In this document: positions 2,062 to 28,078 of the stretch, piece by piece
How positions within the stretch are numbered: the first letter of the stretch is position 1
How the letters are laid out: each line of letters opens with the position of its first letter
Virus record (IMG/VR): IMGVR_UViG_3300009678_001576
DNA: 64,000 bases
Direction: 5' to 3' (one strand)
Source of the DNA: a virus
Position numbers and translations under genes: made by a program
The notes under the pieces: model-generated
Databases searched by the model: none
Seen by the model: the letters and a program-made list of their open reading frames with translations, nothing else
What the model was told of the DNA's origin: nothing

Positions 2062-2511
2062 TTATTCGACGAGAGCCCCGTCGAAAGGGAGTTTCTCTAC
2101 ATCATCCAATAATTTTGTAGCAGCATCGGTAAGTAATTCTGCAGCTTTGTCTTCTCCATTAGCATCACAAGCATCAGCCATTTTAATTAAAGCACCAATT
2201 GCTGTAGCATAACGATGAACTAATGAGCCAGTGGGCATCTTATTTATGATTTCTATCATCTTCTTTTGATTTTCAATTTCGTTTTCTACAAGAGCGCCAT
2301 CGCCCTGGGATTCGGCAATATATACTGGTTCTGGGTGAGCAAGTTCCATAATATTCTTTTCAGGAGTCTTTAGACGTTTCTCTTCGATAGTTTTCTTATC
2401 TTCTTGGTAGGGATTTGGCGCAGGAGCAGCAGTCTTCTTTAATCCAAGAAGGTCGCCATCCTTAGCAATTTTAGCAAATTCCACCATAACATCAGAATTA
2501 TTCCAATCCAT
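2062..2511 (-). CDS. Scaffold-like leader protein (NSDVMVEFAKI leader, AHP..VE motif, helical tag)
   Basis: ORF track 149 aa; shares motifs with 5442..6230, 3110..4756 and the scaffold C-terminal region. Confidence 0.85.
   Translation of the reverse strand: MDWNNSDVMVEFAKIAKDGDLLGLKKTAAPAPNPYQEDKKTIEEKRLKTPEKNIMELAHPEPVYIAESQGDGALVENEIENQKKMIEIINKMPTGSLVHRYATAIGALIKMADACDANGEDKAAELLTDAATKLLDDVEKLPFDGALVE
2083..2089 (-). promoter_or_regulatory. Candidate -1 frameshift heptamer C CCT TTC
   Basis: Zero-frame CCT TTC re-pairs to CCC TTT, which is the frame of 359..2026. A downstream bulged stem GGGGC-T-CTCGT/ACGAG-GTAA-GTCCC can form. Confidence 0.6.
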
Positions 2512-2513
2512 AA

Positions 2514-3110
2514 TTAGCTCCTATTTTTATCTAGATTACCTAGTAGGTCAACAATATCACCCATATTTTGACCCTGAAACATTTCTTGAACGGCCTCTTG
2601 TCCAACTTCCTTAACCTTTTCTTTAGCGATTCCCTTTACCTTGTTATATATGTCGCCCGTACTAGAAGCCCCAAGTGCCATAGCAATAAACGCAAATGCT
2701 CTTAATATAAGACTTGTTATCATCTTGGCGAGCTTACCTGGGCCGCCGAATAGTCTAAAAATACCACCTAGGCCGGCAACCTTAATCATCTGTCCATTAT
2801 TATCTAATGCAGCTTTAGCCTCTAGCATACCCATAAACAAGTTATTTAGGTTATCAGCATCTTGCGGCGTAACATCACTCTTGGGACCTTTACCTAATTT
2901 CTTATCTAGCCAGGCACCAAAATCTTCTATGCCATAACCAAACCAAGAAGCAAATTTATCGATTAAGGTAAGTAATAGTCCACCAAATCCGGCAAATAAT
3001 ACAGGAGAATAGCTAATGAGCCTGAATAGATTTTCAAAAGGCCCTTCGCTGTCTCGCCATACAACCGAAACTGCTTTCAGTAAATCAGTGTTATCAGCTT
3101 GTCGTTTCAT
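2514..3110 (-). CDS. Hypothetical membrane-associated virion protein
   Basis: 198 aa with two hydrophobic segments (VLFAGFGGLLLTLI; ITSLILRAFAFIAMALGA) and an internal MIKVA motif. Confidence 0.8.
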   Translation of the reverse strand: MKRQADNTDLLKAVSVVWRDSEGPFENLFRLISYSPVLFAGFGGLLLTLIDKFASWFGYGIEDFGAWLDKKLGKGPKSDVTPQDADNLNNLFMGMLEAKAALDNNGQMIKVAGLGGIFRLFGGPGKLAKMITSLILRAFAFIAMALGASSTGDIYNKVKGIAKEKVKEVGQEAVQEMFQGQNMGDIVDLLGNLDKNRS

Positions 3111-4756
3111 TAGAATGAATAGCGCCCTTCTTTAAAATCGTCAGCAATTTCAGACCAACTCCAGTCTCTAGGTGCGCGTGCTCTATACTTTCTATAAATA
3201 TATTCACGCATAGCTTGTTCCGACATTCCCCTATCTTGTAGAAACATATATAAACTAACTTCGCGGCCCGACTTTGGATCGTTCATTATTATTGAGCGCA
3301 AACAAGCAGAAACTTCTTCTGGACTTGGATTCGCTTTGTTAGGATTACACATTACACCTTGAGTGGGGTCTTGTTGTGTTTGTAAATTAGCAGGTGCAGC
3401 AGTACCATCAGCAGAAACTACTTTCTGTAAATAAGAATACAATACCCTTACAGCATCGCTTACATTCTCAGGATTAGACATAACTTTAAAATCTACTATA
3501 GATTTTTCGTCTAAACCAGCATATTTTCTCAAATAGTCATCAAGCTCTGGAGATTTAGCAACCAAACCTGTAAATGCAGCAGCTGTATTAACACCATAAG
3601 CACCGTCTTCCTCTATTCTATCGATACCGGTTTTAAGTGCTATGTTAAGTCGATTTATCAATCTTTGTAAGAGCGTTACTTGTGGATTTTTACCAACCCT
3701 GCCACGAGTTGCACCAGGGGCCGCAGCAGATGGTGGTTCACTGGAGGTTCTAAATGCTCTCTTGGAAATATAAGGTTTGGCGCTAGCAGGCCTATTTCGT
3801 GATGGCTTTGCTTGTTGTTTTGCTTCCATTCTCTGTAAGCTATTTCTCATGCGATCTCGTAGAGCAACCATAGGAGTTACATACTGATTTATTTCTTCTT
3901 CAGTTGCTGATTCATTGATTACCTTATTTACGAAATTTCGCACAACCCTTTCGTCTATGTCGGTTTTTTCATAAATTGGCTTTTCACCAGATTGTTGTAC
4001 TCTGGCCTCAAGAGCGATAATATCCTTTGCTACATCTACCAAATCAACACCAGTTGCTTGACCCTTTTGGGCAATTAATTGTTGAGCAGCTTGTTGTGCT
4101 CGTTGTTTGATATCAGCAAGTTGCTGATTTATAGCAGCAGTAGTTTTAGTTAGAGCGTTTTCAAATTGTGTAATATCTCTTTCGTAAAAAGGATCTGTTA
4201 GCAAAGGCTTAACCTGCGGCCAAGTAAGAGCCATTTGATTCAAGTAAGTAGCTACTCTTTCAATATTTCCTAATTGTTGTCTAGCTTGATTTACGACTTC
4301 GCCAGGCTTATTTGGATCAGGAGCCATCTGTACTTGAAAATATGGAAGAAAGCTAGCAAGGTCCGTCTTCCACTTTTCAACTACGCTTTGAGCATCAGTA
4401 TCTTCATAATCTAGAGCTTCGATTCTTTCTAATAAATCCTTAACCCTATTGTCTGCGAGTCTAGTTCCCTGATAAATAGCAAACGCTACACCACCGGCTA
4501 ATAGTACCCATCCTATAGGGCCACCGGCGATTGCAGCTGCTGCACCAGCTGTTCCAGTTGCCGCGCCCGCACCAGTTAATCCACCGGCAACGCCAAAATA
4601 ACCTAAACCACCCATGAGCCCAACATCTGTTAAGGCAGTTAGACCAAGGCTGTTTGCGACATCTCCCCAGTCCCATGCTTCTTTTATCATAGGAGAGGAG
4701 TAGCCCATTATCTTGGCGTATTCCATCATTATTTCGCTATTTTCAAATTGAGACAT
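3110..4756 (-). CDS. Putative ejection or internal virion protein with a glycine-rich hydrophobic region and a peptidoglycan-binding-like domain
   Basis: NSEIMMEYAKI leader, MIKEA, Gly/Ala hydrophobic stretch at ~4470-4660, ISKRA at 3755-3769, PG-binding-like VTLLQRLIN..EEDGAYGVNTAAA at ~3575-3685. Confidence 0.75.
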   Translation of the reverse strand: MSQFENSEIMMEYAKIMGYSSPMIKEAWDWGDVANSLGLTALTDVGLMGGLGYFGVAGGLTGAGAATGTAGAAAAIAGGPIGWVLLAGGVAFAIYQGTRLADNRVKDLLERIEALDYEDTDAQSVVEKWKTDLASFLPYFQVQMAPDPNKPGEVVNQARQQLGNIERVATYLNQMALTWPQVKPLLTDPFYERDITQFENALTKTTAAINQQLADIKQRAQQAAQQLIAQKGQATGVDLVDVAKDIIALEARVQQSGEKPIYEKTDIDERVVRNFVNKVINESATEEEINQYVTPMVALRDRMRNSLQRMEAKQQAKPSRNRPASAKPYISKRAFRTSSEPPSAAAPGATRGRVGKNPQVTLLQRLINRLNIALKTGIDRIEEDGAYGVNTAAAFTGLVAKSPELDDYLRKYAGLDEKSIVDFKVMSNPENVSDAVRVLYSYLQKVVSADGTAAPANLQTQQDPTQGVMCNPNKANPSPEEVSACLRSIIMNDPKSGREVSLYMFLQDRGMSEQAMREYIYRKYRARAPRDWSWSEIADDFKEGRYSF

Positions 4757-5403
4757 TATCCAGCCCTTAGACTACGCACCACTTCTGGTGTTAGATTTGA
4801 ACGTAAGTTTTGTAATGCAATATTTCTTATATATTCGTCTCTGCTCTTATCATCTCTGAATTGAGTATTGCCAACATCAGCTACAGCTCTATCAACTTCC
4901 TGTTTCATTAACTGTTTTAATTGTGAAATGGCATTTACAGGAAGCTCTCGTACATTCTTAACTCCCATCATTTGCATAGCATGTGGGAATAAACTTAATT
5001 GAACTTGTTGTTTTACTGGCGCCCATAAATCGCCTCTTGGTGCAGCTGGCGCAGGAGCTTGTTGTTGGCCAGGCATCGGAGGCATTTCTCTATTTGCAGG
5101 TGTTGCTGGTTGCTTAGCAGCTTGCATTTGTTGATAAGCAGCCTTAGTAGCTGGGCCCCACACACCATCATCTTTTAAATAACCAGGCATTCCTGGCTTA
5201 AAACCGTGCTGTCTATTATATCTTCGTTGCCAATTTTGAACTGCTGTAGTCCCGCCGCGACCTAATCCAGTTTGTGCTGGTTTTTGGGTCTGTGGTGTTG
5301 CTGGTTGCACGGATTGTCGTGGCTCATATTCTGTTCCAGTAGGAACTGACATTGAAGCACCACTCGGATCTGTCATACCCACATCTTCACCAGGATAAGA
5401 CAT
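4756..5403 (-). CDS. Peptidoglycan-binding domain protein; probably the C-terminal part of a -1 fusion with 5442..6230
   Basis: VQNWQRRYN..LKDDGVWGPATKAA matches the PG_binding_1 pattern. The frame is open upstream through the A10 run. Confidence 0.75.
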   Translation of the reverse strand: MSYPGEDVGMTDPSGASMSVPTGTEYEPRQSVQPATPQTQKPAQTGLGRGGTTAVQNWQRRYNRQHGFKPGMPGYLKDDGVWGPATKAAYQQMQAAKQPATPANREMPPMPGQQQAPAPAAPRGDLWAPVKQQVQLSLFPHAMQMMGVKNVRELPVNAISQLKQLMKQEVDRAVADVGNTQFRDDKSRDEYIRNIALQNLRSNLTPEVVRSLRAG

Positions 5404-5441
5404 GCCGTATTCAGCACCCGCAGGCGGCTCCTCCGCAACAA

Positions 5442-6230
5442 CTATTCTTTTTTTTTTAACAGGTTATCCACCTGATTAGCATATTTCTTATAGCCTAACC
5501 TATCAAGGTCATCAGCCAATACAACTAAAACGTGGTTTAATACGTCTTCTGGAGTAGCAACCGCACGTATAATTTCCTTTAGACCATCTAATTTGTCTTT
5601 GTGGCCCATCTTGGCAAGCTTGGTATAAAGATTAACCATCGAAGCATATGTTCCCTTTGGCATTTTCTTAACAACCTCAAGGTCAGCCTTTTGTTGTTCA
5701 ACGATAGTCTCTACTAAATTATCTTTAGTTTTGCTATGAGTTAGCTCAGTTTTGGTTCCGCCACCTGGGTGTGCTTGGTTTACCAAGTCTTCACCAGTTT
5801 CGCCGGTGACATCATATTCTTTGCCTTCTTTGGCAGCCGTAACTACTTCATCACCCTCTACGCTGTTTCTTGATGGTGGCAATTGAGCAACCATAGTCTC
5901 AGCTTCTCCGGCATATTGTGGAGCTAGTAGCTTTGAGACTTGTACTTTGAACGCTGCTATTTCATTAGGATTTTTTGGAAATCGCCTAGAAAGATTAGCG
6001 ACACTTTGATTTATATGCTGATCTAATTCCTTTTTAGCTCGTTGATAGTCGCCCTTATATTTTTCCATTAACTTAGCAGAGAGTTCGTTCAATCGAACAG
6101 CCTCATCATATAAAGGATTTGCGGCCTCTTTTGTCATTTCATCGGAAGCAACTTTGACCAATCCCTGCTCCTGTGCTATACGAGCAAACTCTTTCAACAC
6201 AGTGCTCTCATCGAATTTTATATTTCTCAT
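5442..6230 (-). CDS. Scaffold-like leader protein (ESTVLKEFARI leader, AHPGG..VET motif, C-terminal helical tag)
   Basis: ORF track 262 aa with SD GGAGA; shares motifs with 2062..2511 and the scaffold. Confidence 0.85.
   Translation of the reverse strand: MRNIKFDESTVLKEFARIAQEQGLVKVASDEMTKEAANPLYDEAVRLNELSAKLMEKYKGDYQRAKKELDQHINQSVANLSRRFPKNPNEIAAFKVQVSKLLAPQYAGEAETMVAQLPPSRNSVEGDEVVTAAKEGKEYDVTGETGEDLVNQAHPGGGTKTELTHSKTKDNLVETIVEQQKADLEVVKKMPKGTYASMVNLYTKLAKMGHKDKLDGLKEIIRAVATPEDVLNHVLVVLADDLDRLGYKKYANQVDNLLKKKE
5448..5457 (-). promoter_or_regulatory. Candidate -1 frameshift or transcriptional slippage site (A10 run)
   Basis: TTA AAA AAA AAA GAA TAG. The -1 frame reads KKKRIVVAEEPPAGAEYG into the ATG at 5403. 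An SD-like AGGTG lies 11 nt upstream (5469-5473). Confidence 0.6.
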
Positions 6231-9660: not shown

Positions 9661-12600
9661 TTACTTCCAGCCCAATGAGCCTAGTTGGTCAACTAAACTA
9701 GATTCTGGGGATGGATTTGCACTTGCAGTAGCGGTCATAGCAGCTGAAGCAGCTTCTAGACCAACTCGTGGAAGGGTTCCGCCCTTCTTTGCGGTTGACT
9801 TGTAGTTTGCAACCACGCGCTTATTTGATTCAAACGCTGCATCATCAAAATGCATGATTTCATCAACATAAGTGTCAAGTGAATCACGAGTGCCGGATAT
9901 TAGTCCTTTTTCTTGAGCCTGTATGGCAATGTCATAAGCTCTTCGTAACTTGAGCTTATAGTTATTGTCAGATGCTTCTTTCTTGCCCTTAGCAAATTCC
10001 TTGCTTAAGTCCGCACCAAAGCTTCCGGCTTGTGGAGCCTGTGCGAAATATTTCTTCCAATAGGCAGCAGCAGCGCTGTCGACTTTGCCTTCTGCAACTA
10101 GTCTCTCAACGTCTTCTGCTTTTACAGCACCTTCAACAATCTTTTCCTGAAGTACGGCTGCGGCTTCACGAACATTACGTGGGCCTGATTCAGCAACGTC
10201 TCTCATTACTTCATGAACTTCAGAAATAGTTTCAACCTTGGCTTCTTGGGTCTTTGTGCTAGTTAGTTCAGTCACAGTTCCCTTTCCACCTGGATGAGCC
10301 TGGAAGTAAGTTGGCTCGGTAGCATTTTGTGCTTTACCTAGGTCCAACTCATATTTACCAAGTACGCCTTCAGCACGAGCAACTAAAGCCTCGCGAGCTG
10401 TTTTGCGTGATGCAACTACTGGAGCGCCTGGAGCCATTCCGGCACCAGCAGCCATTGGGTCAGCAGCCATCATGCAATCTTGAGCATGACCTTCTGGACC
10501 ACAAGCACACATTTCTGGTGCAACGTCTGCCATCATAGCATCATCTTCTTTGTCTTCCTTCTCATCCTCTTCTTCGCCCTCTTCGACTTCGACATCTTCC
10601 TCGTCGTCATCATCCTTTTTCTTGTCTTTAGCCATATCTGCAGCTAAATCAGGATGCATTTTCCCACCTTCTGGGCTCATCTCGGACTTTTCATCCTGCA
10701 AGAGCTTCTTTAGGTCATCTTCAGTCTTTGGATCAAGGGCCAAGTCGGCATCCTCACCATACATACCCATTGCCGCCTTTAATAAAGCTGCGCGATTTTG
10801 TGCGCGAACCTTAAGGGCGTCGTCGAGTAGTTTTTGAGCTTCCGCTTTCTTGTCATCTTTATCTTCTTTCTTGTCCTTCTTGTCTTCCTTTTCTTTCTTC
10901 TCAGCCTTTTCCTCTTTCTTATCTTTCTTGTCGGCCTTCTCTTCTTTGTCTTCTTTCTTATCTTTCTTAGCCTTAGCAGCTTCGATAACTATATTAGCTT
11001 CGGTTAGGACTACGTCGCTATCTGCCAATACATCGGCAGCAGCCTTTAACAACTTATCCTTATTTCCAGCTTCTACTTTATCTAGACCTTCTAGGGTTTC
11101 GCTAACTAATGCAAGTTCATCAGCAGCGTCATTCAATAGTGACTCTACCTTAAGAGCATCTTCACGGAATGATAGAACTTTATCCATTGGGCCCTTTTCG
11201 CCGACATTAACATCAACGTCAACTAAGCCCGAGCCCTCTTTGCCTAATAGGTCACGGAGTTCTGCAATTTTTTCTTCCATTGTGCTTAATGCAGCGTTTA
11301 CTTTTTCAAGATTCACGCCCTCAGCCTTTGGAGCTTCTGCTGGTGCAGCCGCTGGTGCTGGAGGAGGAAGTTCTGCTGCTGGAGCAGGTGCCGCTGGGGC
11401 TGCAGCTTCTGGAGCTGCTGGCATCATTGGGTCTTGTGCGCCCTTCAATAGATATGCTACTTGATCAAAACCTTCTGTACGGATCATCTTAAGAACGTCT
11501 GAACCGTATTGCTTTGAACTAAAGTAATCCCAGTTGTCGTCTAGTTCGTCTTCATAAACTTCGGAACCAGCCGCGCTTAAGATTAATTGGTCGCCAGCGT
11601 AGATGTCCCAACGGGATGCATCTTTTACTAGATTGCCCTTTTGGTCTGCTACTTTAACGAGCTTGGCTCGTAATTTGGCACGTAGCAATTTCTTCTTAAC
11701 TTCCATATCGCCAGGAAATGCGCCATCAGTTCCGCCCATATTGTCGGGGGCCTGCATGTGCTTGTCCTCGTTATTGCGAATCTTATCTGCTTCTTCCTTT
11801 GGATACTTTACTTTGCCTGGGGTCGGTTCATTTAAACCGCCACCACCGAGCCAATAGGCTCTGCGTTTCATTCTACGGTCTTCGAGTTCGGCTGTAGTAA
11901 GACCATCTTGGTTTTCCTCAGCACGTAACAATTTCTTCTTAACTTCTTCGTCACCCGGATGCAGACCTTCGCTACCTGTCTCTAATGGTTCGCCAACCAT
12001 TTGCTTATCTTCACTGTCGCGAATAGAATCGGCATCCTCTTTTTCGTATTTTGGCTTACCTGGGGTTGGTTCATTAACACCACCACCGCCAAGCCAATAT
12101 GCGCGTCGAGCTTTCGCTCTTGCGCGTAGTCTCGCTGAATTCATATTGTTCTCCTCCTTAGAGATTAATGTTTTGAGCTCATTAAAAGCATTGTTCATAT
12201 TTTTTACTTTATTGCGAAGGAGGCTTAACTCTTGTGAGAGTGCATCCTGGGTTAGGTTTTCGCCTCCTACTTTCTGGCTAGCAAATCTTTGAGGAACTTC
12301 TGTCTCAAAGGGCGGCCAACCAACTTTACCGCTATCGTTTTCTAGAGATTGCTTTTCATAGCCTTCTCCACCACCGATAGTGGCTCGTGCGTCATTTGCG
12401 GCAGCAACTGGGGCCGCTTCAGGTGCTGGAACTGGGACAGGAGCCGCTGGTTCCATTAATTCAGATTCACCTAATAGTAATTCTTTAATCTGTGCTTTAA
12501 TCTTTGCTACTTCTTCTTTAGCATTTGGGTCAGTTTCTAAAGCCTTGAGAGCAGCAACTAACTCGCCCAAGTCAGCATTATTAGCAGTCGCGGCCTTATT

Positions 12601-13497
12601 CATTCCCATCAAACCGCCAATTCTCTTTTGCATTTCAGCAACAGAATCAGACAATTGTTGTAATTCAGTTGGATTTACACAACGATCAGCCTTCAATTGT
12701 TCGATACGTGCAGTTTTTTCCTGAACATATTGATCCATGCTGGCAATAACGTTTCTAATTTTAGCGAGACCGTCGGCGCCATTAACAACCAAACTCAATT
12801 CAATTGGGTTTAAGTCCAAGTTAATTTCGCCATAGTGTGAGCGGCTCTTGATGCAATTGCAATATTCTTTTTCAACTGCGGCAACATTGGAACATTCAGT
12901 GCAAACTGAACGACCAACGGCAGTCCCCATTGATACACAATTAGCATAACCGGTTTCTACTTTACGAGCTAGGTCCGCATAATTCTTGCGATCTAATGCA
13001 AAAAGCGCATGAACGCGCTTAAATTTAGGATCATAATAAGTATCTATAACAATGCCACGAATACCATCTACGCTATCAGACTTGTGGTCTTTGCAAAGAG
13101 GTTTGCCTACCCATTTCTTGTAAGCTTTTAACAATTCAGCTTCTGGGAATATATCACCATTAGCATTTTTATAGGGCTTAACGTCATCGGGAGATATCCA
13201 CTTAACTGATTCTCGCCCGCCTTTAATCTTTATCGTTTCAAAATAACCTTTAGATGGCTCACCCTTCTTATTCTTTACGGGTTCGCCAGTTTCCTGATTG
13301 ACTAGGGATGCTTCGGCGGCATGCATCATAACCGCATGACCGTATAGGAAATCTTCAGCCTTTGGGGCAATTCTCTTTAGAGTTTTGGCCATCTTCACAA
13401 AACGTTTAGCTATTTCTAAATCAGCTAATGCTTCTTTGGGTTGAAGTATATTTTCTTCGGAGAATGAAAGATTCTCACCAAACTTATTAATCGCCAT
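9661..13497 (-). CDS. Prohead maturation protease fused to scaffolding protein
   Basis: The N-terminal ~250 aa carry NANGDIF..EL, KDH (His), VSMG (Ser), GEINLDL..IELSLV..AD, the pattern of caudoviral or herpes-fold prohead proteases. The remainder is charged, Pro/Ala-rich coiled coil. Confidence 0.85.
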   Translation of the reverse strand: MAINKFGENLSFSEENILQPKEALADLEIAKRFVKMAKTLKRIAPKAEDFLYGHAVMMHAAEASLVNQETGEPVKNKKGEPSKGYFETIKIKGGRESVKWISPDDVKPYKNANGDIFPEAELLKAYKKWVGKPLCKDHKSDSVDGIRGIVIDTYYDPKFKRVHALFALDRKNYADLARKVETGYANCVSMGTAVGRSVCTECSNVAAVEKEYCNCIKSRSHYGEINLDLNPIELSLVVNGADGLAKIRNVIASMDQYVQEKTARIEQLKADRCVNPTELQQLSDSVAEMQKRIGGLMGMNKAATANNADLGELVAALKALETDPNAKEEVAKIKAQIKELLLGESELMEPAAPVPVPAPEAAPVAAANDARATIGGGEGYEKQSLENDSGKVGWPPFETEVPQRFASQKVGGENLTQDALSQELSLLRNKVKNMNNAFNELKTLISKEENNMNSARLRARAKARRAYWLGGGGVNEPTPGKPKYEKEDADSIRDSEDKQMVGEPLETGSEGLHPGDEEVKKKLLRAEENQDGLTTAELEDRRMKRRAYWLGGGGLNEPTPGKVKYPKEEADKIRNNEDKHMQAPDNMGGTDGAFPGDMEVKKKLLRAKLRAKLVKVADQKGNLVKDASRWDIYAGDQLILSAAGSEVYEDELDDNWDYFSSKQYGSDVLKMIRTEGFDQVAYLLKGAQDPMMPAAPEAAAPAAPAPAAELPPPAPAAAPAEAPKAEGVNLEKVNAALSTMEEKIAELRDLLGKEGSGLVDVDVNVGEKGPMDKVLSFREDALKVESLLNDAADELALVSETLEGLDKVEAGNKDKLLKAAADVLADSDVVLTEANIVIEAAKAKKDKKEDKEEKADKKDKKEEKAEKKEKEDKKDKKEDKDDKKAEAQKLLDDALKVRAQNRAALLKAAMGMYGEDADLALDPKTEDDLKKLLQDEKSEMSPEGGKMHPDLAADMAKDKKKDDDDEEDVEVEEGEEEDEKEDKEDDAMMADVAPEMCACGPEGHAQDCMMAADPMAAGAGMAPGAPVVASRKTAREALVARAEGVLGKYELDLGKAQNATEPTYFQAHPGGKGTVTELTSTKTQEAKVETISEVHEVMRDVAESGPRNVREAAAVLQEKIVEGAVKAEDVERLVAEGKVDSAAAAYWKKYFAQAPQAGSFGADLSKEFAKGKKEASDNNYKLKLRRAYDIAIQAQEKGLISGTRDSLDTYVDEIMHFDDAAFESNKRVVANYKSTAKKGGTLPRVGLEAASAAMTATASANPSPESSLVDQLGSLGWK
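11677..12108 (-). repeat. Two 63-aa internal repeats in the scaffold (RRAYWLGGGG.NEPTPGK...PGD.EVKKKLLRA)
   Basis: Copies at 11920-12108 and 11677-11865, each 189 nt. Confidence 0.9.
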
Positions 13498-19198: not shown

Positions 19199-19654
19199 TT
19201 ACTCTTCCTTCATACGCATAATCATCCATTTCTTACCGTCTGTTTTATGCAAAGTATAGGCCCCTTTCTCTTTTTTGCCATATAACTTGAACTTAATAGT
19301 ATCTTTTTCCCATTTAATAAGTTCATATGTTCCAGTATCATGTATATCTACATGTCCCTTACCATAGCCCTCTTCTATTTCTCCCTCAAATTTATTATAT
19401 TCGATAGGATGATCTTCTGTTTGTTGGACAAATAATTTTTCATTTCCAGTGGGTAATTTGTGTTTAGGAATAGCAAAAGAGGTCATTGCTCCGTCATCAT
19501 TCTCTAATCTCAAATCAAAGTGTAATCCGGCCGTATCAGCATCGTGTTTTTGGATGACGAAGCGATATTTATTCTTACCACTTTCTACTTTACCTTCTGG
19601 TTCTGGTGTTTTATCAAATTCGCGTTTCTTTTTATATTCTTTTAACTTATCTTT
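19199..19654 (-). other. Polyprotein module: LigD-type 3'-phosphoesterase (PE) domain
   Basis: EYKKKREFDKTPEP, FVIQKH..HFDLRLE, EDHPIEY, EGYGKG, DTGTY. Confidence 0.9.
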
Positions 19655-22600
19655 AGCACGCTTGGATAGCCATGACGAAAGTTTCATCGGCTCCTGTTGT
19701 AATTGCAATAATTCTTTCTTAGGTTCCTCTGGCTGTTCATAGTAATGAACTGTTCCATCTGGGTTCCAACGGCCTTCTTCGCCTTCAAAGTTCGGGGGAG
19801 TTGCCTCATATTTAGCCGTTTCATCCTCTTGGCCTCGATAATACTCTTCGTATTCTGCGACTTCTTCTGGAGACTTCTGATATTCTCTGATTTGTTCTTC
19901 TAGGCCATACACATCACCTTCCAATATATGGCGTATTGGCATCATGTCTTCTTGCTCTTGTGCTTTTAACTCTTCAATTTCACTAGGAGACATCTGCTTA
20001 TTGTTCCATCTTGCAAGACGTTCTTTGGCCTTAATTAGTTCATCCTGAAGTTTAAGTATCTCTTTAGAGTAATCCTTCCACTCATAGACGGGTTTTTGGC
20101 CTTCCAGTTCCCTAAGCTTAACCATAGTTTCATACTTTTTTCTTTCCAGCCATTTACGATGATTTGGGTCTTGTACGGTTTTTAGATTTTCATCCAAATG
20201 TCGTATTACCTTTTTTATATATTCTACTTGAGATTTTGGGTCTTGAACTATAGCTAATTCATTGGCTGCTCGTTTAGATATACTTTTCCCGCCAAGCCTA
20301 AATCGTTTCCTGTAGTCACCATTCCAGATTTCTACGCTTTCAATAGTCCAAGAGCCATTAGGAAAGTCTTTATCATATTTTTCTTTGCCAGGTTCCATGT
20401 ATTCGAGCGTCACGTGAGGCTTATAGTCTGGAAAATGGTCATCTATTTCAATGCCAGCGTTAGAAATACCTTCCTTTAGTTTGTCGTGGAACTTATGCAG
20501 GTCTTTCGAAATAACCTTTAATTTAGCAATCTTACAACCATCGGAATGTTTTGAGGCAGGAAAATATGAAACATTTTCATCTAACTTTACATCAAATGGT
20601 TCATAGTTACTAACAATTTCTTTTACTGTTTCTTCCAAAAGCTCTTCGTCCTTCTTTGGAACTTCACCAATAAACAAAACAGTTACATGTGGTTTTGAGT
20701 CGTCATGGTCGCCCAAAGACGGAAATCCCTTTGCCAAATCACCAGGAACTACTGCAAATATACCAGCCTTTGCATGTTTCTTGGGTTTGGCTCTTTTGGA
20801 AATGGAGGCGGACTTAATTATATTATGAAGTTCGCGATATAATTCTCTTACCATCTTCTCATAATATTGTGGTTTGTTTTCTTTTAAAATTTTAAGACGT
20901 CTATTTTCTAGAACAAATTCTCTAAATCGTTGCTCCATAACATATTTATAAACCTCTGGTCTATTTTTTTGCAAAGTTTTTATATTTAATTCACTAATAT
21001 GAAGTGGTTCTTTGGAATATCTTATTATAGCAGATATCTCTGCCTCACTCAATGGCAAAGAAATAACGTCTCTCTTCATATTGGCAAACTCATCCCGCAG
21101 ATTAGTATAAAATTCTATATCAGATAGAGTATGTTGAGGGCCAGTGTATTGTTCTTTGTGTTTGTATAATTGAAGTGTTTTGGGATTATAATAAGTTGGT
21201 AGCCCGGCCATACCTATATCTTTTCCCTTTTGTTGAGAAATGGCAGCTCTCATAATTTCTTGCATCATATGAACCAATTCGTGCTTTATAGTTCCAGAGA
21301 TTTCTTTTAACTCGTCACTAAGTCTGGCTTTAAAATCTTCCTCTAGGTATCTCATGTCCTCGGCATCTTTATTGCGGCTGCTTTGTTCTTGTAGAAAATT
21401 AACTAATCTATAAACACTACCTATAATTGTGATTATAGGGTTTCCATCATTATTATTATAACTACCGGCACTGTTAGTTTGCTTACTGCTTTCTCTGGAT
21501 AATTTTATTGTGACTTCTTTAAATTTTCCATTTTTGTGAAGTAATTGTAATTGCGGTTCAATAATTGTATATTGTTTAGTATCACTTACATCTATTTCCA
21601 TAATTATCGATTCTTGACTAGTTACATGTGGGATATCTTTTGCCAATTGTGAGACCAGAGTAGCCTTAGCACCGTCCTCGAAGGCAATAGCAGAAGCAAC
21701 GGCCCTTTGTATCATATAAGCATATTGATCAGATGTTTTATCAACAAATGAAATATAATCTTTACTATTTGCGTCATTTAATTTATTTATAACAAAAGAC
21801 TTAGTCACCGGCTCACCCAAATGGAATTCACCTGGTTGGCTGGAGCGTATGAATTCTTCTAACTTTCTATCTTGTTTATCAACCCAATCCATATCAATAA
21901 AATCAAATGTTAGAGTATCAGTCTTTTTATCATATTCCATACGAGATGAGAAAAAATAGTTACCTACATCACCCTTTACATCTATATTACCATTTTCATT
22001 TCTACTTATGGTTAATGCTGGCGCCAATGTATTTATATTCAATACAATTTTGTCTGGTGTATTTTCAACTATAGCTATATTGCCATCTTCAGTACTTATA
22101 TCCAATTCTTGCTTCCAGTTATCGCGTTCTATAGTTCTATATTGTTTGTTTACAGATTCTATAGCAGTTAGAATTAACTTTTTAAGTCGTATTTTACTAT
22201 TGGTATATTCTTTAAAGTCATTTGCCCAGTGTTGCCTGTCTTCCTTGATTGTATCTCCAATAACTACCGGCGCCAACCTTAAAGCACTGGATGGCTTTAT
22301 TCTACGCTTTTCGATGTCAGCAAAAGCTGTGCCAGGTAAGGCCATCTTTACCCATTCCATAATGTTTTGGTGCATCTGCTTTGGGTAATCGACTACGCCA
22401 GCTCGTTTAGAAATCAACGACGCTCTACTTTTTTTTAAAGCCTCTTTGGCCGTTTCTTCTAAAGAGCGAAAGTCTTTAAAGCGTTCAAGCGGTAACAGCA
22501 CTTCTAAAAAGAATTGCGGATCTCGTACAGCAACACTCTGCATAGCTTCATTTAACCTGGGGGCAAATTGTTTAGTATCAAACAAACCCATAGTAAAGTA

Positions 22601-25600
22601 TAATTTAGGTCGCGATACTAATAAGTTATTTAGAGCCATTTCGTCTATATTTTGATAATTTGGATTATTTTGAAGATTACTTATAAAATATACTTCTGGA
22701 AATCTTTTAGCAATTTCTTCTACAGCCATCCGTTCCAGATGAGGAAATCTTTTAGCAAATTCTGGATAACTTATAAATATAGTTGGATCTTTTTTAATTT
22801 GTTCGAGCACTTCGGCATCAGTTAAAGAGGGCCTTACTATCATTTCCGGAGGCAATTCTTCATCCTCAATATGTCGCACACCAAACTCTTCAGAGTCCAT
22901 GGGATACTCTATCAGCGATTCATCATATTTGGGCAGCTCAAATTCTTGAGAGTTATATTCTTTCTTAAACTCCATTGTAGGTTCGGTGGCCCTCTTGCTG
23001 ATTAAAAAATCAGCACTCTTTGCTAAATCCATTTGTTGGTATAATTGTTTGGCAGAGGCAATAGCATCGTCTTTAGTGGCTGTTGGATTTTCCAGTTGCC
23101 ATTGGATTAATTCCTTATTAAGAACACCAACCCACTTACCACCTTTGCGGCCGAAGAGTTTCATGAGCTCATCACCCGTTAATAGAGGTTTCATAGTATG
23201 GGCTTTTTCTAGACCCATATTTTTAATTTGCTCTTTTAGGCTCTTGTAGTAAGTCGGATTATAGGTAGGTAGCCAATCTTTCTTTTTGGCAGAAGCATCA
23301 GCCTGGGCAATATCTATGGCATTCTCCCAATCATCACCAATCATACGAACGAAATTACCAAGTTGCTTGCGCGTCATATTAGCAATTTCAGAACTATCTT
23401 GTCGCTCTGGATTAACTCGGCGAGCAGCATCAATTAGTTTCTTGATACGCTCTATTTCTTCGGTTCGTACGCCAGGAAGATTCTTTAGCATATATTCGGC
23501 AATGGATATACTTGATTCCTCGTGACCATGATAAGTGCTTACTATCTTGCCGCCAATTTCTTTAGTACCATGAATCTTGGGGTCTAATTTACCAACATCA
23601 TGTAGGAAAGCTGCAAGGTTAACTGCAAACTTATCAGCATCATTTAAATTACGGTCTTTTACGATTTGTTGTAGATTACCAAGAGTTTCAGAGATATGAT
23701 CCCAGATGTTTAATTGGTGATGTGGATTGTTTTGATCCATCTCCCATTCTTTGGTGCCTTCTGGGAGCTTTAGAACCTCGGAGCGCAAACCTAATTCCTT
23801 AATTAGCTGAAGAGCCCAAACAGGACTAGGCCCAGCTACCATTTTTCGTAGCTCGGCCTCAATTCTTTCTCTAGAAATCTTGCCCCTAAAAGACTCTTGA
23901 ACTTCTGGGTCTTTAGCAGCCTCCATAAGTTCTGGGGCCAACTTAAACCCATACCTTGAAGCAAAGCGTATTGCTCTTAAAATACGAAGTGGATCGTCCA
24001 TGAAGGTTTTCTTTGGATTTATAACCTGGGACTCGTCGGTGATACCAACTTGTGACCAAATCTCTTTTGGCGGAATTGGAGTTCTAATGACACCGTTCTT
24101 AATATCCTCAACACCAGTGCCAGTCAAGTCTTCTACTTTGCCATCATTAATATTGTAGAATAAAGCATTAATGGTAAAGTCTCTGCGATACGCATCTTCC
24201 AAGGCAGTTCCTGGAACCATTTGAGGAATGCGAGTATTGGCATCATACTTTTCTGCACGTAGATTTACAAAGTCAATACTCTCATCTAGAAGATTAACTA
24301 CAGCGGTTTCAAGATGTTTCGATTGGTCAGGCCTTGCTTCGATTACGCCAACGGACTTTGCCGGGACGCCCTGCATTCGAGCATAGGCCAACGCCTTTTC
24401 AGCGAAATCTTTGCCGGACATATTATCAACGGCAATGTCAATGTCCTTGCTATTCTTACCCATTACTTTATCACGAACCCAACCACCAGCTACACGAATA
24501 GTGGATTTGAGACCAAAGTGTCTGATAGCTCCGAGCAAGATATCGAAAATTTGTTTTTCTTTATCTGATATTTGGATGTCGGGAACTTCGGCAGCTAACT
24601 TTTTTTTAGCTGCTCTTTTTGATATTTTCATTGAAGATGTGATTTGCTCAAGTTGGTCTAATTCTAATTCAACTTTATTTGGGTCTTTTATATTGCGCGC
24701 GTTATTGGCACTCTCAACATAATCTGGATAATCTTTGTCGAGTCCAAGGTCAAAGAATGAGTCTGGATTAGTATCAACCAATTGTATAATGGCACCACGT
24801 CCCAATTCAGGGAAGTTGTGGTGTAAGTGGTAATAAAAGAACGCACGAACATCCTGCTGCGAAAGAGCTTCCGCGGCAGATTGTAATAAGGCTTTAAATG
24901 GTTCCTCTGGGCGCTCGTGATACTTAAATACGAAATAGAATTTGGCATTATCCTTAAGCATATTCTTTAGGGCATCGGATTCCAATTTAGGATAAGTTTT
25001 GTGTAAGCCGCGATAGAAAAAAGTATCTGGTTCAGTATTAGCTAATTGACCAGCAGAAGACTCGTTGATGTCATGCAATTCAATACCAGGATTTTTGCGT
25101 TCTAAAAACTTTGGAGTCTTCTCAAACCAATCTCCCATTTGGTCATCTTTACCAAACCCAATATCGCCCTTTTGTTCTTCTGGCAATTTAACTTGTGGTT
25201 TTTCAACTTCTACTTCAGCGAGCATTTCCTCAGCTCGAACCGAAATAAAGGCTTTTTTCTCGCTTCCAATTGGTTGTTTAACCCCACCTTTACTTTCGTG
25301 TATAGCATATGGAACACGAATATTACCGTTATCCTTCAAGGTAGTAGTGTCGGTGCGCACACCAGCGCCCTTTACTATTCCAGTAGTAAATCCCTCATAG
25401 CTCTTATTTAACTCTTCACACATATCGCGTAGCTCGTTTCTCAAAGAATCAACATCCTTTTCTTGTTTTAAAGCAAATTCGATATGATAGCCTGAACCAC
25501 CACTTTCATAAATGATTGGTGTTGTGCCGTATTTATTTTTAATTTCTTTGGCTACGTCATTAGCATATTCTTTAGCTTTCTCTTTTGGGAAATTACCATG

Positions 25601-28078
25601 AACATCCAAATCAACAAAGCCTAATTTAGTCTTAGACCCAAATACACGATGAATGGATAAGAGTCTACGATCAGCCCAATACATTAAATCGTCTTTGTTG
25701 TCCATTACGATTGGCTTATCATTATGCTTGCGCTTCAAGATATTCTCATCTTTATCAGTTCCTATATATAACATCACGGGTTCGCCTTTAATTTCTTTTA
25801 AAATCTTATCGGCGTTTTTGGCGTAATGATTTCTAATTTCTTCTCGTGTCCAATCTTTTAATAAAGGTTTCTTCCATTTTGGGTCGTCTTTTTCGCGCTC
25901 GTATTTGTTAGGCTCATCGTCAGCCTCTTGTGTTTCTGGACGGAATGCCTCTAGGATTTCCTTTGGGGCGTCCGAAGCTAGAATGTCTTCGTATATGCTA
26001 TTTAAATCTATTTCGTCTTCAGCCATATCGTCGCTCTCTTCTACAATTACACTGGCTGTAGCTTGCTGGCCTAATATATCAACATGCACAGAATTATTAT
26101 TTTCTTCAATTAAAGTGCGCATTTTTATACCAGTTTGGCGCGAAGCCTGCATTACAGCATTAGCTATTTCATTTAAATCAGCACCACTAATATCGAATGA
26201 GCGACCTGATGAGTGCGGAGTGCTTTCTGGATTATTAATCGTATATCCCATAGACCTTAATACTTTGGCCATTTGCTGTGGGTCTTGCACGCCGGGATAC
26301 ATTCCAGCTGCCCCAGAGCTTTGCCAATAGTTATGAATTACTCTAACTTGATCTTCTGGTGTTCTGATGGCAGAGGTCATCCAGGCATTTTCCGGTAAAA
26401 CATTTAACTTTTGTAGTTCATACCAAGTGCTCAAAATTTCCTTATTTAGTTTGTTTGCCGGAACCTTTATTTTTAGGCTGGTTAATTGTCCTTTAAAATC
26501 AGTGGTATCTCTTTTGCTTATAGAAGAGGGAGAAACTTGCTTCTGGCGCATAAGTTCAATTTCCTTAACATGCTCTGGCTTTAATAAAGCTCGTTTGGAA
26601 ATCAACAAAGATTGCCTCTTAGTTAAATTTAGTTTAGGGCCGCTTTGATATGCGTAGAGCATTTCAGCAAAATCTTCTGCGGATGGCATCATTATCTGCC
26701 CGCCTATTTCTACGTGATATGCCTTATTTCCTGGCTCATACTTATGAAAGCGAATAGGTAATATGTGAGAGTAATTTTTTTGTAGATGCTGTATCGCTTT
26801 AGCTATTCTGCCAAAGTTTCCAACTATATCTAAGGCTGAGCCCATAAGATGCCAAGACTCACCAACTGGAGCAATATCTAAACGTTCCGCTCCTTCAGCA
26901 CTGGTCATCTTTTGTCTCAAGCTTTCAATAAACTTAAGTTCTCTGGGAGAAAATTTAATCTCCTGTCCATGTAAGCCCTGTTTGGCTCTATACAAAAGAC
27001 TACGCAAATAGCCCTCCATTTCTTTGGACTTTGCATCATTCTTGTGAAAAAATCCTTGGTTCTTTTTATAAGTGCCGCCTGGAGTCCAGCTTAACCAATT
27101 TTCAAGAATGATTTTAATCTGGTCATAGTCATCTCTTAGCCCACTGGTCAATTTAGAGCCCGATGGCAAGAAGGGTGCAATGATTCTCCATGCCTGCTGA
27201 AGTACCGGAGTCATCTTTACGTTTTCAGAAATATTAGGAACGTTTTTATTAATATCGATATTTTGTTTAGCATACAATTCCGGATCAGATACAATTGGCT
27301 TTCCCATTTGCTCTACGGTTTGGCTCATTGGAGTAGTAGTTAATTGGTCAGCCCGTATGCTTATACCAGCTTCTTTTTTGTTCTCGTATTTTTCAACCAA
27401 CTCTGGGTCTAAATATTGATTTTTTAGAGTGGCTGGTTTGTGGCCTACTAATTCTGCCACCTCTTCCAAAGCTTCTTTCCAGTCTTTGGTTTTTAGTTGC
27501 TCTTTCATTAATCGATTAGAGTGAAAGCCACGTAGGTCTTTAGCACTAATGTTAAAAGGGTTCAAGTATCTATTAACAGCACGATCCCAAATTTTAGTAC
27601 CATCTATCTCAAATACGAAATCGTTATCCTTTTTGCCTTTTGCTAATTCTTTAAGAGTAGAAATTAATTTCTTACCAGATACTTCGGTTTCCTGATCAAC
27701 GCCGCCTTTGCCAACATATTTAATTTTGGCTTTGCTACCAGAAAAAGTAAGGTGCTTAACTTTAAGTGTGCTAGCTCCATAGGTCTTGGCATCGCGAGCG
27801 GAATCCTCGTTGCCAATGCGCATAGCAGTCTCGTCCATAATAGCTACAACAGCAGCAAGTGCCTTTGTACGTAGGTCATCAGAAGACAAGTCCTTCTCGT
27901 ACTTTTTGCGAAGCTTTTCTATACCCTTTTGTAGTTTTTTAATTTTATCTTTCTTCTCTTTCCAACGTTTTTGGATGGTCTTTTCATCATAAACCCACAC
28001 GTATCCCTTGTCGGTCTTTTTCTTTTCCTTATATAGCGGTTTGTCGGATTGTATTTTAGCGCGTTTACTAATTTCCAT
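19199..28078 (-). CDS. Multi-enzyme polyprotein (~2,960 aa) with ISKRA-delimited modules
   Basis: Single uninterrupted ORF. ATG at 28078 overlaps the upstream stop (TAATG); the ORF track uses TTG 28087. Modules were recognised by catalytic motifs (see sub-features). Confidence 0.95.
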   Translation of the reverse strand: MEISKRAKIQSDKPLYKEKKKTDKGYVWVYDEKTIQKRWKEKKDKIKKLQKGIEKLRKKYEKDLSSDDLRTKALAAVVAIMDETAMRIGNEDSARDAKTYGASTLKVKHLTFSGSKAKIKYVGKGGVDQETEVSGKKLISTLKELAKGKKDNDFVFEIDGTKIWDRAVNRYLNPFNISAKDLRGFHSNRLMKEQLKTKDWKEALEEVAELVGHKPATLKNQYLDPELVEKYENKKEAGISIRADQLTTTPMSQTVEQMGKPIVSDPELYAKQNIDINKNVPNISENVKMTPVLQQAWRIIAPFLPSGSKLTSGLRDDYDQIKIILENWLSWTPGGTYKKNQGFFHKNDAKSKEMEGYLRSLLYRAKQGLHGQEIKFSPRELKFIESLRQKMTSAEGAERLDIAPVGESWHLMGSALDIVGNFGRIAKAIQHLQKNYSHILPIRFHKYEPGNKAYHVEIGGQIMMPSAEDFAEMLYAYQSGPKLNLTKRQSLLISKRALLKPEHVKEIELMRQKQVSPSSISKRDTTDFKGQLTSLKIKVPANKLNKEILSTWYELQKLNVLPENAWMTSAIRTPEDQVRVIHNYWQSSGAAGMYPGVQDPQQMAKVLRSMGYTINNPESTPHSSGRSFDISGADLNEIANAVMQASRQTGIKMRTLIEENNNSVHVDILGQQATASVIVEESDDMAEDEIDLNSIYEDILASDAPKEILEAFRPETQEADDEPNKYEREKDDPKWKKPLLKDWTREEIRNHYAKNADKILKEIKGEPVMLYIGTDKDENILKRKHNDKPIVMDNKDDLMYWADRRLLSIHRVFGSKTKLGFVDLDVHGNFPKEKAKEYANDVAKEIKNKYGTTPIIYESGGSGYHIEFALKQEKDVDSLRNELRDMCEELNKSYEGFTTGIVKGAGVRTDTTTLKDNGNIRVPYAIHESKGGVKQPIGSEKKAFISVRAEEMLAEVEVEKPQVKLPEEQKGDIGFGKDDQMGDWFEKTPKFLERKNPGIELHDINESSAGQLANTEPDTFFYRGLHKTYPKLESDALKNMLKDNAKFYFVFKYHERPEEPFKALLQSAAEALSQQDVRAFFYYHLHHNFPELGRGAIIQLVDTNPDSFFDLGLDKDYPDYVESANNARNIKDPNKVELELDQLEQITSSMKISKRAAKKKLAAEVPDIQISDKEKQIFDILLGAIRHFGLKSTIRVAGGWVRDKVMGKNSKDIDIAVDNMSGKDFAEKALAYARMQGVPAKSVGVIEARPDQSKHLETAVVNLLDESIDFVNLRAEKYDANTRIPQMVPGTALEDAYRRDFTINALFYNINDGKVEDLTGTGVEDIKNGVIRTPIPPKEIWSQVGITDESQVINPKKTFMDDPLRILRAIRFASRYGFKLAPELMEAAKDPEVQESFRGKISRERIEAELRKMVAGPSPVWALQLIKELGLRSEVLKLPEGTKEWEMDQNNPHHQLNIWDHISETLGNLQQIVKDRNLNDADKFAVNLAAFLHDVGKLDPKIHGTKEIGGKIVSTYHGHEESSISIAEYMLKNLPGVRTEEIERIKKLIDAARRVNPERQDSSEIANMTRKQLGNFVRMIGDDWENAIDIAQADASAKKKDWLPTYNPTYYKSLKEQIKNMGLEKAHTMKPLLTGDELMKLFGRKGGKWVGVLNKELIQWQLENPTATKDDAIASAKQLYQQMDLAKSADFLISKRATEPTMEFKKEYNSQEFELPKYDESLIEYPMDSEEFGVRHIEDEELPPEMIVRPSLTDAEVLEQIKKDPTIFISYPEFAKRFPHLERMAVEEIAKRFPEVYFISNLQNNPNYQNIDEMALNNLLVSRPKLYFTMGLFDTKQFAPRLNEAMQSVAVRDPQFFLEVLLPLERFKDFRSLEETAKEALKKSRASLISKRAGVVDYPKQMHQNIMEWVKMALPGTAFADIEKRRIKPSSALRLAPVVIGDTIKEDRQHWANDFKEYTNSKIRLKKLILTAIESVNKQYRTIERDNWKQELDISTEDGNIAIVENTPDKIVLNINTLAPALTISRNENGNIDVKGDVGNYFFSSRMEYDKKTDTLTFDFIDMDWVDKQDRKLEEFIRSSQPGEFHLGEPVTKSFVINKLNDANSKDYISFVDKTSDQYAYMIQRAVASAIAFEDGAKATLVSQLAKDIPHVTSQESIIMEIDVSDTKQYTIIEPQLQLLHKNGKFKEVTIKLSRESSKQTNSAGSYNNNDGNPIITIIGSVYRLVNFLQEQSSRNKDAEDMRYLEEDFKARLSDELKEISGTIKHELVHMMQEIMRAAISQQKGKDIGMAGLPTYYNPKTLQLYKHKEQYTGPQHTLSDIEFYTNLRDEFANMKRDVISLPLSEAEISAIIRYSKEPLHISELNIKTLQKNRPEVYKYVMEQRFREFVLENRRLKILKENKPQYYEKMVRELYRELHNIIKSASISKRAKPKKHAKAGIFAVVPGDLAKGFPSLGDHDDSKPHVTVLFIGEVPKKDEELLEETVKEIVSNYEPFDVKLDENVSYFPASKHSDGCKIAKLKVISKDLHKFHDKLKEGISNAGIEIDDHFPDYKPHVTLEYMEPGKEKYDKDFPNGSWTIESVEIWNGDYRKRFRLGGKSISKRAANELAIVQDPKSQVEYIKKVIRHLDENLKTVQDPNHRKWLERKKYETMVKLRELEGQKPVYEWKDYSKEILKLQDELIKAKERLARWNNKQMSPSEIEELKAQEQEDMMPIRHILEGDVYGLEEQIREYQKSPEEVAEYEEYYRGQEDETAKYEATPPNFEGEEGRWNPDGTVHYYEQPEEPKKELLQLQQEPMKLSSWLSKRAKDKLKEYKKKREFDKTPEPEGKVESGKNKYRFVIQKHDADTAGLHFDLRLENDDGAMTSFAIPKHKLPTGNEKLFVQQTEDHPIEYNKFEGEIEEGYGKGHVDIHDTGTYELIKWEKDTIKFKLYGKKEKGAYTLHKTDGKKWMIMRMKEE
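20282..20788 (-). other. Polyprotein module: 2H phosphoesterase
   Basis: Paired HxT motifs PHVTV and PHVTL. Confidence 0.9.
20804..22399 (-). other. Polyprotein module: uncharacterised region ending in a zincin-like HExxH metallopeptidase
   Basis: TIKHELVHMMQ followed by a downstream Glu (IEFY). Confidence 0.55.
23003..24610 (-). other. Polyprotein module: class II CCA-adding-type nucleotidyltransferase with HD domain
   Basis: AGGWVRD, DIDI, DFVNLRAEKY..RIP, RRDFTINA, DDPLRILRAIRF; HHQLNIWDH and LHDVGK. Confidence 0.9.
25270..25860 (-). other. Polyprotein module: LigD-type primase-polymerase (AEP) domain
   Basis: FVDLD, ESGGSGYH, RTD, RVPY; boundaries approximate. Confidence 0.8.
26070..27349 (-). 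other. Polyprotein modules: two M15 (Hedgehog/DD-peptidase fold) zinc peptidase domains
   Basis: TSGLR..Q / SWHLMGSALD / YHVE and TSAIR..Q / PHSSGRSFD / VHVD (H, H+7 D, distal H). Confidence 0.8.
27365..28057 (-). other. Polyprotein module: type IB DNA topoisomerase catalytic domain
   Basis: R-K-R-H-Y pentad: MRIGN, GKGG, KDLR, GH, KNQY. Confidence 0.9.

Follow-up and report, generated by a model that had tools for sequence, protein, structure and literature searches.

A probable -1 recoding site at a conserved A run in a head-region leader gene family of uncultured giant phages

The leader gene, the A run and the -1 frame

Two neighbouring genes on the minus strand of IMG/VR virus record IMGVR_UViG_3300009678_001576 are considered here, the record having been analysed as one stretch of 64,000 nucleotides (the window, in whose coordinates positions are given). 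The upstream open reading frame (ORF), ORF-A, encodes an all-helical 'leader' and finishes, in minus-strand orientation, with ...CAG GTG GAT AAC CTG TTA AAA AAA AAA GAA TAG, a run of ten adenines (A10) being separated from the zero-frame stop by the single codon GAA. Downstream and in the -1 frame relative to it lies ORF-B, which carries a module resembling peptidoglycan (PG)-binding domains (Table 1). Together the two are likely to form one recoded gene, with the A10 run serving as a real and conserved -1 recoding site.

Read in the zero frame the run is TT[A AAA AAA] AAA and holds two phased A AAA AAA heptamers. The -1 frame opens two codons ahead of the run and then meets no stop for 230 codons, its translation (P V K K K R I V V A E E P P A G A E Y G M...) reaching the ATG of ORF-B by way of a bridge that has no start codon of its own. 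A frame change within the short overlap of the two frames would give a trans-frame fusion of 261 + 15 + 215 = 491 amino acids (aa), reading ...LLKKK-RIVVAEEPPAGAEYG-MSYPGE..., with a predicted junction peptide (..LLKKK)RIVVAEEPPAGAEYGMSYPGEDVGMTDPSGASMSVPTGTEYEPR and a tryptic piece IVVAEEPPAGAEYG. A preliminary description of this DNA had put a -1 slip site at the A10 run, had led the -1 frame into ATG 5403 to make a 491-aa product, and had held that simple readthrough of the TAG does not join the ORFs. The sequence bears out all of this, as past the TAG the zero frame meets another stop 22 codons on and ORF-B is in a different frame. Stop-codon reassignment was ruled out, since all three stop codons are in use, 92% of the window reads as coding with code 11, and reading through the TAG misses ORF-B.

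The A10 run exceeds chance expectation, because it is the sole homopolymer of nine or more in the 64 kb and the sole uninterrupted lysine run: the window proteins contain 18 runs of at least three lysines, of which this one alone is spelled entirely with AAA, the other 17/17 being broken by AAG, and elsewhere in the window AAA makes up 57% of lysine codons. Across the family AAA accounts for 33/36 lysine codons at the junction versus 417/591 elsewhere in the genes (Fisher p 0.004, on sequences that are phylogenetically non-independent). The assembly of the window looks accurate, given that its coding lies on one strand at the density just mentioned and that long ORFs of 2962, 1278 and 1142 aa pass unbroken across A/T8 runs. 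As a separate observation on lysine spelling, the commonest form of a lysine pair in the minus-strand ORFs of the window is AAG AAA (50/125).

Table 1. Features of the locus and its surroundings, in window coordinates
Feature	Position	Strand	Description
ORF-A	6230..5442	-	262 aa, all-helical 'leader'; C-terminal KKKE, then TAG
SD-like AGGTGG	5473..5468	-	ends 10 nt upstream of the run; overlaps conserved Q/K-V-D codons
TAA of the -1 frame	5466..5464	-	-1 frame open from 5463 to the stop at 4756
Overlap where the frame change must occur	5445..5463	-	first -1 sense codon to last zero-frame sense codon
A10 run, proposed slip site	5457..5448	-	T10 on the + strand
Phased heptamers A AAA AAA	5457..5451, 5454..5448	-	both within the A10 run
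Zero-frame stop TAG	5444..5442	-	stop of ORF-A
Candidate weak hairpin	5418..5441	-	core GCGG-AGGAG-CCGC, downstream of the run
Bridge, -1 frame only	5404..5448	-	R I V V A E E P P A G A E Y G
ORF-B	5403..4756	-	215 aa from ATG 5403; C-terminal cargo module of the predicted 491-aa product
PG_binding_1-like motif	5104..5271	-	ORF-B, about residues 45-100; GRGGTTAVQNWQRRYN...LKDDGVWGPATKAAY
548-aa protein	3110-4756	-	after ORF-B; glycine-rich
198-aa protein	2514-3110	-	TrbL/VirB6-like match below threshold
149-aa ORF	2511..2062		paralogous leader
149-aa/555-aa junction heptamer C CCT TTC	2089..2083	-	within 2026-2104
1278-aa protein	9661-13497	-	prohead-protease-like domain, residues 111-219 (PHROG 18299, 5.5e-12)
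Copy of the ORF-A core motif	~10302-10177		near the C-terminus of the 1278-aa protein
2962-aa ORF	19199-28087	-	multi-enzyme protein; adjoins the portal gene

The junction and the -1 reading in relatives

The comparison set comprised about 60 loci and 59 proteins, all of the comparators being metagenome assemblies. The junction occurs in three states, each directly after a conserved ..VD.L(L/I)KK(K). The majority state is one continuous ORF, found at eight loci (L001, L003, L017-L019, L022, L030, L060) and in about 35 database proteins of 390-750 aa, and in those unsplit relatives where both parts are detected the B part is in the same frame as A. A second state has ORF-A alone with the next gene following immediately (L002, L054). 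The third is the split state of the window, present in eight other distinct sequences whose ORF-A is 36-96% identical and which break at an A8-A10 run in the same place (Table 2).

Counting the window, the downstream frame is -1 in 9/9 split forms and +1 in 0/9. The zero-frame stop comes 0-4 codons past the run and the -1 frame remains open for 230-431 codons where the contig permits; it opens 0-6 codons upstream of the run in 7/9, and the overlaps in the split relatives are tight, at 13-25 nt centred on the run. A heptamer of the X XXY YYZ type stands in the zero frame within the overlap in the window and in all split relatives, including the A AAA AAG of L050. The A8 junction of L048 and L049 is one identical sequence recovered as an ENA megahit contig and as a JGI contig, that is from two samples by two assemblers, and L051, whose ORF-A is only about 54-58% identical to the window protein, nevertheless retains the window junction nearly base for base. 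An exact-pattern scan for the junction shared by the window and L051 returned nothing in viral contigs and nothing in genome contigs. Gene callers have annotated two genes in all of the split relatives.

Table 2. The junction in split and continuous relatives
Locus	Junction	Run	-1 frame or length	Remark
L048 = L049	TTA AAA AAA AGC TAA	A8	-1 open to contig end	ORF-A 95-96% identical
L050	TTA AAA AAA AAG TAA	A9G	-1 open 310 codons	C-terminus 71% identical to window ORF-B
L051	TTA AAA AAA AAA GAC TAG TTG TTG C	A10	-1 open 264 codons	near-identical to window junction
L052	ATT AAA AAA AAA GCT TAG	A9	-1 open 271 codons
L053		A10	-1 open to contig end
L055	TTA AAA AAA AAA GTT TAA	A10	-1 open 309 codons
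L056-58	CTA AAA AAA AAA GTT TGA	A10	-1 open 431 codons	same protein on 9 contigs, at least 3 runs
L059		A10	contig ends 10 codons after run	probable only
L001	continuous ORF	A7	469 aa
L003	continuous ORF	A10	540 aa
L018	continuous ORF	A10
L017	continuous ORF	A9G
L019	continuous ORF	A9
L060	continuous ORF	A9G

Conservation of the -1 reading begins at the run itself. After the lysines the -1 frame gives RIVVAEE in the window, RLVVAQP in L051, SLVVVAA in L052 and (L/V)TSVVTAAPADEE in L048 and L050, while relatives that are continuous read KKKIVVAEN (L060) and VIAENP (L018) in frame, so that split and fused forms share (R/S/-)(I/L)VVA.. right after the run. The bridge has homologs in the -1 frame of L051 (KKKRLVVAQPADP) and in frame in L019 (KKKLAEPYVDPGVAEFGGSMPEGE) and L021 (..IAEYGGSMPGQD). 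Similarity also continues across ATG 5403, the window having AEYG-MSYPGED against AEYGGSMPGQD in L021 and AEFGGSMPEGE in L019, and when the extension was compared with L021 by tblastn the match began four residues before the first methionine of ORF-B. L048 and L050 show 10 nucleotide differences over the 26 codons that follow the run, a stretch lying ahead of any start common to the two; in the -1 frame these differences amount to 9 synonymous and 0 non-synonymous changes, whereas in each of the other two frames 10/10 differing codons are non-synonymous. From these comparisons it is clear that purifying selection acts on the -1 reading right from the run.

The first start codon available to the -1 frame in the split forms lies 10-27 codons after the run and varies in position and type, and the Shine-Dalgarno (SD) score of ATG 5403, -3.8 kcal/mol where the window median is -5.7, falls in the weakest quartile. 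Since the homology and the synonymous-only change precede any start, and the starts are variable and the SD at 5403 weak, the -1 stretch is on this evidence read from upstream, and independent initiation cannot account for its conserved coding.

The preliminary description called ORF-B a PG-binding protein, a label that a family profile supports and that is only weakly borne out by the single sequence. Taken singly ORF-B scores 13.6 bits against Pfam PG_binding_1, for which the cut-off is 23 (E 0.08), and matches a PHROG endolysin at 2.9e-4; the family profile A3 searched against the Protein Data Bank (PDB) finds the endolysin PG-binding domain 7rum_A at E 1.8e-6, 1lbu at 8e-4 and phiKZ gp144 at 0.016. 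ORF-B used alone as query found no relative among viral contigs. In L048 the -1 frame goes on as another helical extension, KKKLTSVVTAAPADEELAAEQ.. (L048:1069-1252), and L050 (133-1074) has an extension of the L048 type followed by the PG-binding and C-terminal part that it shares with the window. Judged from these sequences the cargo module is exchanged between near relatives after the slip site. Because the L048/L050 extension is absent between the window run and the C-terminal part shared with L050, the window looks like a deletion or recombination variant without about 100 residues.

On the core-domain tree the split state is scattered among fused forms, with about 6 changes needed and at least two of them forced by well-supported branches; the split protein P0033, for example, is sister to the fused P0030 with support 99/98. 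Ancestrally the junction is, as far as the relatives tell, continuous, and given the scatter on the tree the site has by the same comparison toggled repeatedly between in-frame and -1, never +1. With the downstream frame never at +1, this bias is compatible with the downstream part being rescued by ribosomes that slip -1 or through an added A.

A side observation concerns those in-frame relatives that have A9-A10 (L018:1243, L003:8720, L017:864, L019:5873, L060), in which off-frame stops lie 0-12 codons past the run. Loss of one A would bring an immediate stop in L018, L003 and L019, and gain of one A a stop within 1-12 codons, so slippage in such relatives would yield a leader-only protein. 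In the in-frame relatives the -1-frame stop lies at a median of about 4-5 codons from the run, a figure that is no more than suggestive.

A second junction of the same kind lies further along the window. Residues 148-247 of ORF-A match the 149-aa ORF (tblastn E 4e-4), which upholds the earlier term 'paralogous leader', and both junctions come directly after the shared helical domain. At the paralog the heptamer C CCT TTC leads into a 555-aa ORF whose TTG start is without an SD (+1.2 kcal/mol). Six further genomes (L003, L004 with C CCT TTA, L005, L010, L018, L027) have this junction with its downstream ORF in the -1 frame, the heptamer and the nucleotides after it (..GGTAAGTCC.TACATAAAACAGC.., as at L003:12380-12460) being conserved, and the junction is in agreement with the claim that each of the two paralogous leaders ends in a slippery sequence. 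In L001, L006/22, L023 and L030 the 149-aa and 555-aa parts are fused in frame. Conservation of the C CCT TTC site with its -1 ORF in six other genomes supports the idea that this lineage uses recoding in the leader gene family, with the same alternation of fused and split states at both junctions.

Routes of slippage and the competing explanations

Standard decoding would give the 262-aa helical leader ending at the TAG, and in a fraction of expression events one base would be slipped on the A10, either by the ribosome moving -1 on A AAA AAA or by the polymerase adding one A. Both routes would lead to an identical 491-aa protein with the PG-binding-like module on the leader, and slippage would thus set the ratio of leader-only to leader-plus-cargo product, as in lambda G/GT or dnaX. 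A protease- or scaffold-related leader would carry the cargo into the capsid, where the cargo's presumed role would be to act on the cell wall at infection. That slippage itself takes place is something we infer from the junction sequences.

As to which machinery would slip on the window A10, the polymerase is marginally favoured as the larger source, ribosomal slippage making a further contribution. Speaking for the polymerase, A9-A10 is present in 7/9 split forms, which is beyond what a heptamer requires, and such runs are avoided elsewhere in the genome. Bacterial RNA polymerase slips efficiently on runs of nine A or nine T, Thermus dnaX and Shigella spa13 being examples; in spa13 a C-terminal extension is thereby placed on 25-30% of the product, and the errors of bacterial polymerases on such runs are mostly insertions (PMC5009743). 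Ribosomes shift efficiently into the -1 frame at heptamers of the A AAA AAG type, and E. coli genes avoid A7 (PMC4066793). Speaking for the ribosome, the run of L048/49 is no longer than A8, in L050 the stop follows A AAA AAG directly, and the layout of both L048 and L050 resembles that of dnaX, with a 9-bp hairpin starting 6 nt past the first heptamer and AGGTGG lying 10 nt upstream.

The candidate stimulators are not conserved across the split forms. The preliminary description had noted an SD-like element at a stimulatory spacing upstream; the element is there, its AGGTGG ending 10 nt before the run, and a stimulatory role for it is not established because the hexamer is present also in in-frame relatives such as L001 and L022 and is missing from five of eight split forms. 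Past the window run the fold is -8.7 kcal/mol over 40 nt and -11.8 kcal/mol over 45 nt, which is non-significant against shuffles (z -0.13), and the stem of L048 and L050 reaches z -2.2 and z -1.3 respectively. Downstream folds are more stable in split than in fused forms, averaging -9.7 and -5.7 kcal/mol respectively; the z-scores against shuffles are non-significant except for L048.

Among explanations that dispense with recoding, the simplest is that the run was miscounted in assembly or sequencing, its true length being A11 (or A8) in a plain 491-aa ORF. Homopolymers are the commonest sites of length miscalls, the A10 is the longest run in the window, and the fused state is the majority in the ORF-A family. 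Against this the same -1 layout is found in eight other distinct sequences at run lengths of 8, 9 and 10, with the A8 identical from two assemblers and two samples and the A10 seen on the 9 contigs of L056-58; L051, at its distance from the window, keeps A10-GA(C)-TAG-TTG-TTG-C; and an in-frame A10 was assembled normally in L018 and L003, with no broken genes elsewhere in the window. Because the -1 split recurs across relatives, run lengths, assemblers and samples and the -1 reading is conserved, a one-off error is very unlikely, and the recurrence and the selection on the -1 peptide together back the earlier preference for a real slip site over a single sequencing error. Nor is it probable that these are simply two independent genes, with ORF-B begun at ATG 5403 from its own ribosome binding site or by re-initiation and the lysine run an accident. 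Such a view draws on an ATG 38 nt past the stop with a weak SD-like GGTG, on L002 and L054, which lack the C-module and so imply a leader that can work alone, and on the gene callers having divided every split relative; it is countered by -1-frame homology and purifying selection that reach back to the run, upstream of every candidate start, by a first start conserved neither in position nor in type (10 to 27 codons post-run), and by a -1 frame that opens 0-6 codons before the run in 7/9 with the downstream frame always -1. A similarly small chance attaches to a phase-variable locus, or a recent inactivating indel, of which the record would be the 'off' variant with its C-module unmade. Poly-A tracts are hypermutable and the tree calls for repeated switches between fused and split. 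However, the downstream ORFs are intact for 230-431 codons in every split lineage, the split has persisted under selection on the -1 reading through divergence at least from L048 to L050, and random indels predict +1 as often as -1 when +1 is seen in 0/9; moreover an A10 would be partly rescued by slippage anyway (PMC5009743), and in this respect phase variation shades into the recoding explanation.

Several observations do weigh against a recoded ORF-A/ORF-B gene. No relative pairs the same split with the same C-module, and even L048, at 95-96% identity, differs in its extension. Many relatives have an in-frame fusion or, as L002 and L054, do without the C-module, and since they manage so, recoding is not obligatory for the ORF-A family. 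Selection on the -1 reading would also be expected if the true sequences were plain fusions. The ATG of ORF-B has a weak but not absent SD, and some independent initiation is possible. AGGTGG is found in 3/8 split forms (window, L048, L050) and is absent in L051, L052, L053, L055 and L056, and a conserved downstream stimulatory structure among the split forms gained no statistical support against shuffles (mean z -0.47). The comparators, too, are all metagenome assemblies. With these points allowed for, a recoded gene remains the likely explanation of the locus.

Genomic setting, significance and known recoding systems

In ORF-A conservation is seen at the N-terminus (MRNIKFDESTV..EFARIA) and in a core (YDVTGETGEDLV..AHPG..TE..LVETIVEQQ..PKGTYA..VD.LLKKK). 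Pfam and PHROG searches with it were without match; its structure model is all helices with a mean pLDDT of 64 and a pTM of 0.30, with Foldseek against the PDB giving nothing at E <1. DNA and protein searches of GenBank phages found no homolog of the locus or of ORF-A, and the window terminase is only about 25% identical to terminases of cultured Bacillus phages. The core motif recurs near the C-terminus of the 1278-aa protein, at 50% identity over 42 aa, and because the core is thus found both in the 149-aa ORF and in a protease-bearing protein, ORF-A would be a scaffold-related 'leader'. A tail-chaperone (G/GT) identity was rejected, as neither ORF-A nor ORF-B has a Pfam or PHROG chaperone match and the context is a head module.

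The window also encodes a portal, a large terminase, a DNA ligase, a DNA polymerase, an SbcC-like protein and the 2962-aa multi-enzyme protein, and the relatives occur on contigs of 158-461 kb. The locus lies in a head-assembly gene block of an uncultured giant phage. In PHROG searches the 2962-aa ORF is tRNA nucleotidyltransferase-like (2.3e-39) and RNA-ligase-like. The glycine-rich protein that follows ORF-B has a weak tape-measure-like PHROG match (7e-6) and no Pfam match, and its gene and that of the 198-aa protein are syntenic in L003, L055 and L056; the two products may be membrane-active ejection proteins.

The sequences, then, probably describe a hitherto undescribed family of leader/cargo proteins from the head region of megaphages, in which a -1 recoding site at an A run has been conserved. 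A more tentative idea, which we think possible although doubtful, is that the poly-A tract is a family-wide two-way slippage switch, on which split members slip to the long form and in-frame A9-A10 members slip to leader-only. If that were so every member would make both forms, and changes of one nucleotide (about 6 on the tree) would re-set the cargo per capsid; joined with the C CCT TTC site of the paralog it would mean a Gag/Gag-Pol-like dosing of packaged cargo in megaphages. The recoded ORF-A/ORF-B gene, if real, has consequences for annotation, gene callers splitting such genes in every assembly examined. It would further provide a handle on how giant capsids come to be loaded with small, set quantities of cargo, in this case a cell-wall-binding module, and a natural series of in-frame and -1 versions of one site in which gain and loss of recoding could be studied.

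Among tailed phages the best-known cases of recoding are the G/GT genes for tail chaperones, along with a small number of capsid genes. A helical leader family in a giant-phage head module would be a different gene family for recoding, and one with two paralogous junctions and two slippery motifs. With lambda G/GT and its conserved equivalents in tailed phages the locus shares a proposed -1 shift near the 3' end of a small gene of a structural module, a proposed minor product, in fixed ratio, that is C-terminally extended, and the weak tape-measure-like match of the gene that follows. It departs from lambda G/GT in having no tail-chaperone family match, about twice the protein size and another slippery motif, in the position of ORF-A downstream of a prohead protease-like gene with a motif common to both, and in that some relatives are fused or lack the extension.

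The nearest parallel at the level of the site is E. coli dnaX, where tau and gamma arise at A AAA AAG with an SD-like element 10 nt upstream and a stem-loop 6 nt downstream. Common to both are a slippery site of lysine-codon poly-A and two products with a common N-terminus, and L050 even has A AAA AAG and then a stop, with AGGTGG 10 nt upstream in the window, L048 and L050. Unlike dnaX, where the shift shortens the protein, the phage shift would lengthen it; the stimulators are unconserved and the proteins unrelated. The transcriptional slippage sites of Thermus thermophilus dnaX, Shigella spa13 and mxiE and many insertion sequence (IS) elements (PMC5009743) resemble the A10 in having a run of 9-10, the lengths on which bacterial RNA polymerase slips efficiently, where insertion of one A gives the -1 product, and differ from the phage sites in that L048/49 have only A8. 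In coupling an assembly protein made in abundance with a scarce form that takes an extra function into the particle, the proposed pair is like retroviral Gag/Gag-Pol and T7 gene 10A/10B, if the capsid role of ORF-A is granted. The sharing of one N-terminal module among several otherwise different head-region proteins, with a copy in the 1278-aa protein, recalls the capsid-targeting sequence of T4 internal proteins and the inner-body proteins of jumbo phages, with which there is no sequence similarity.

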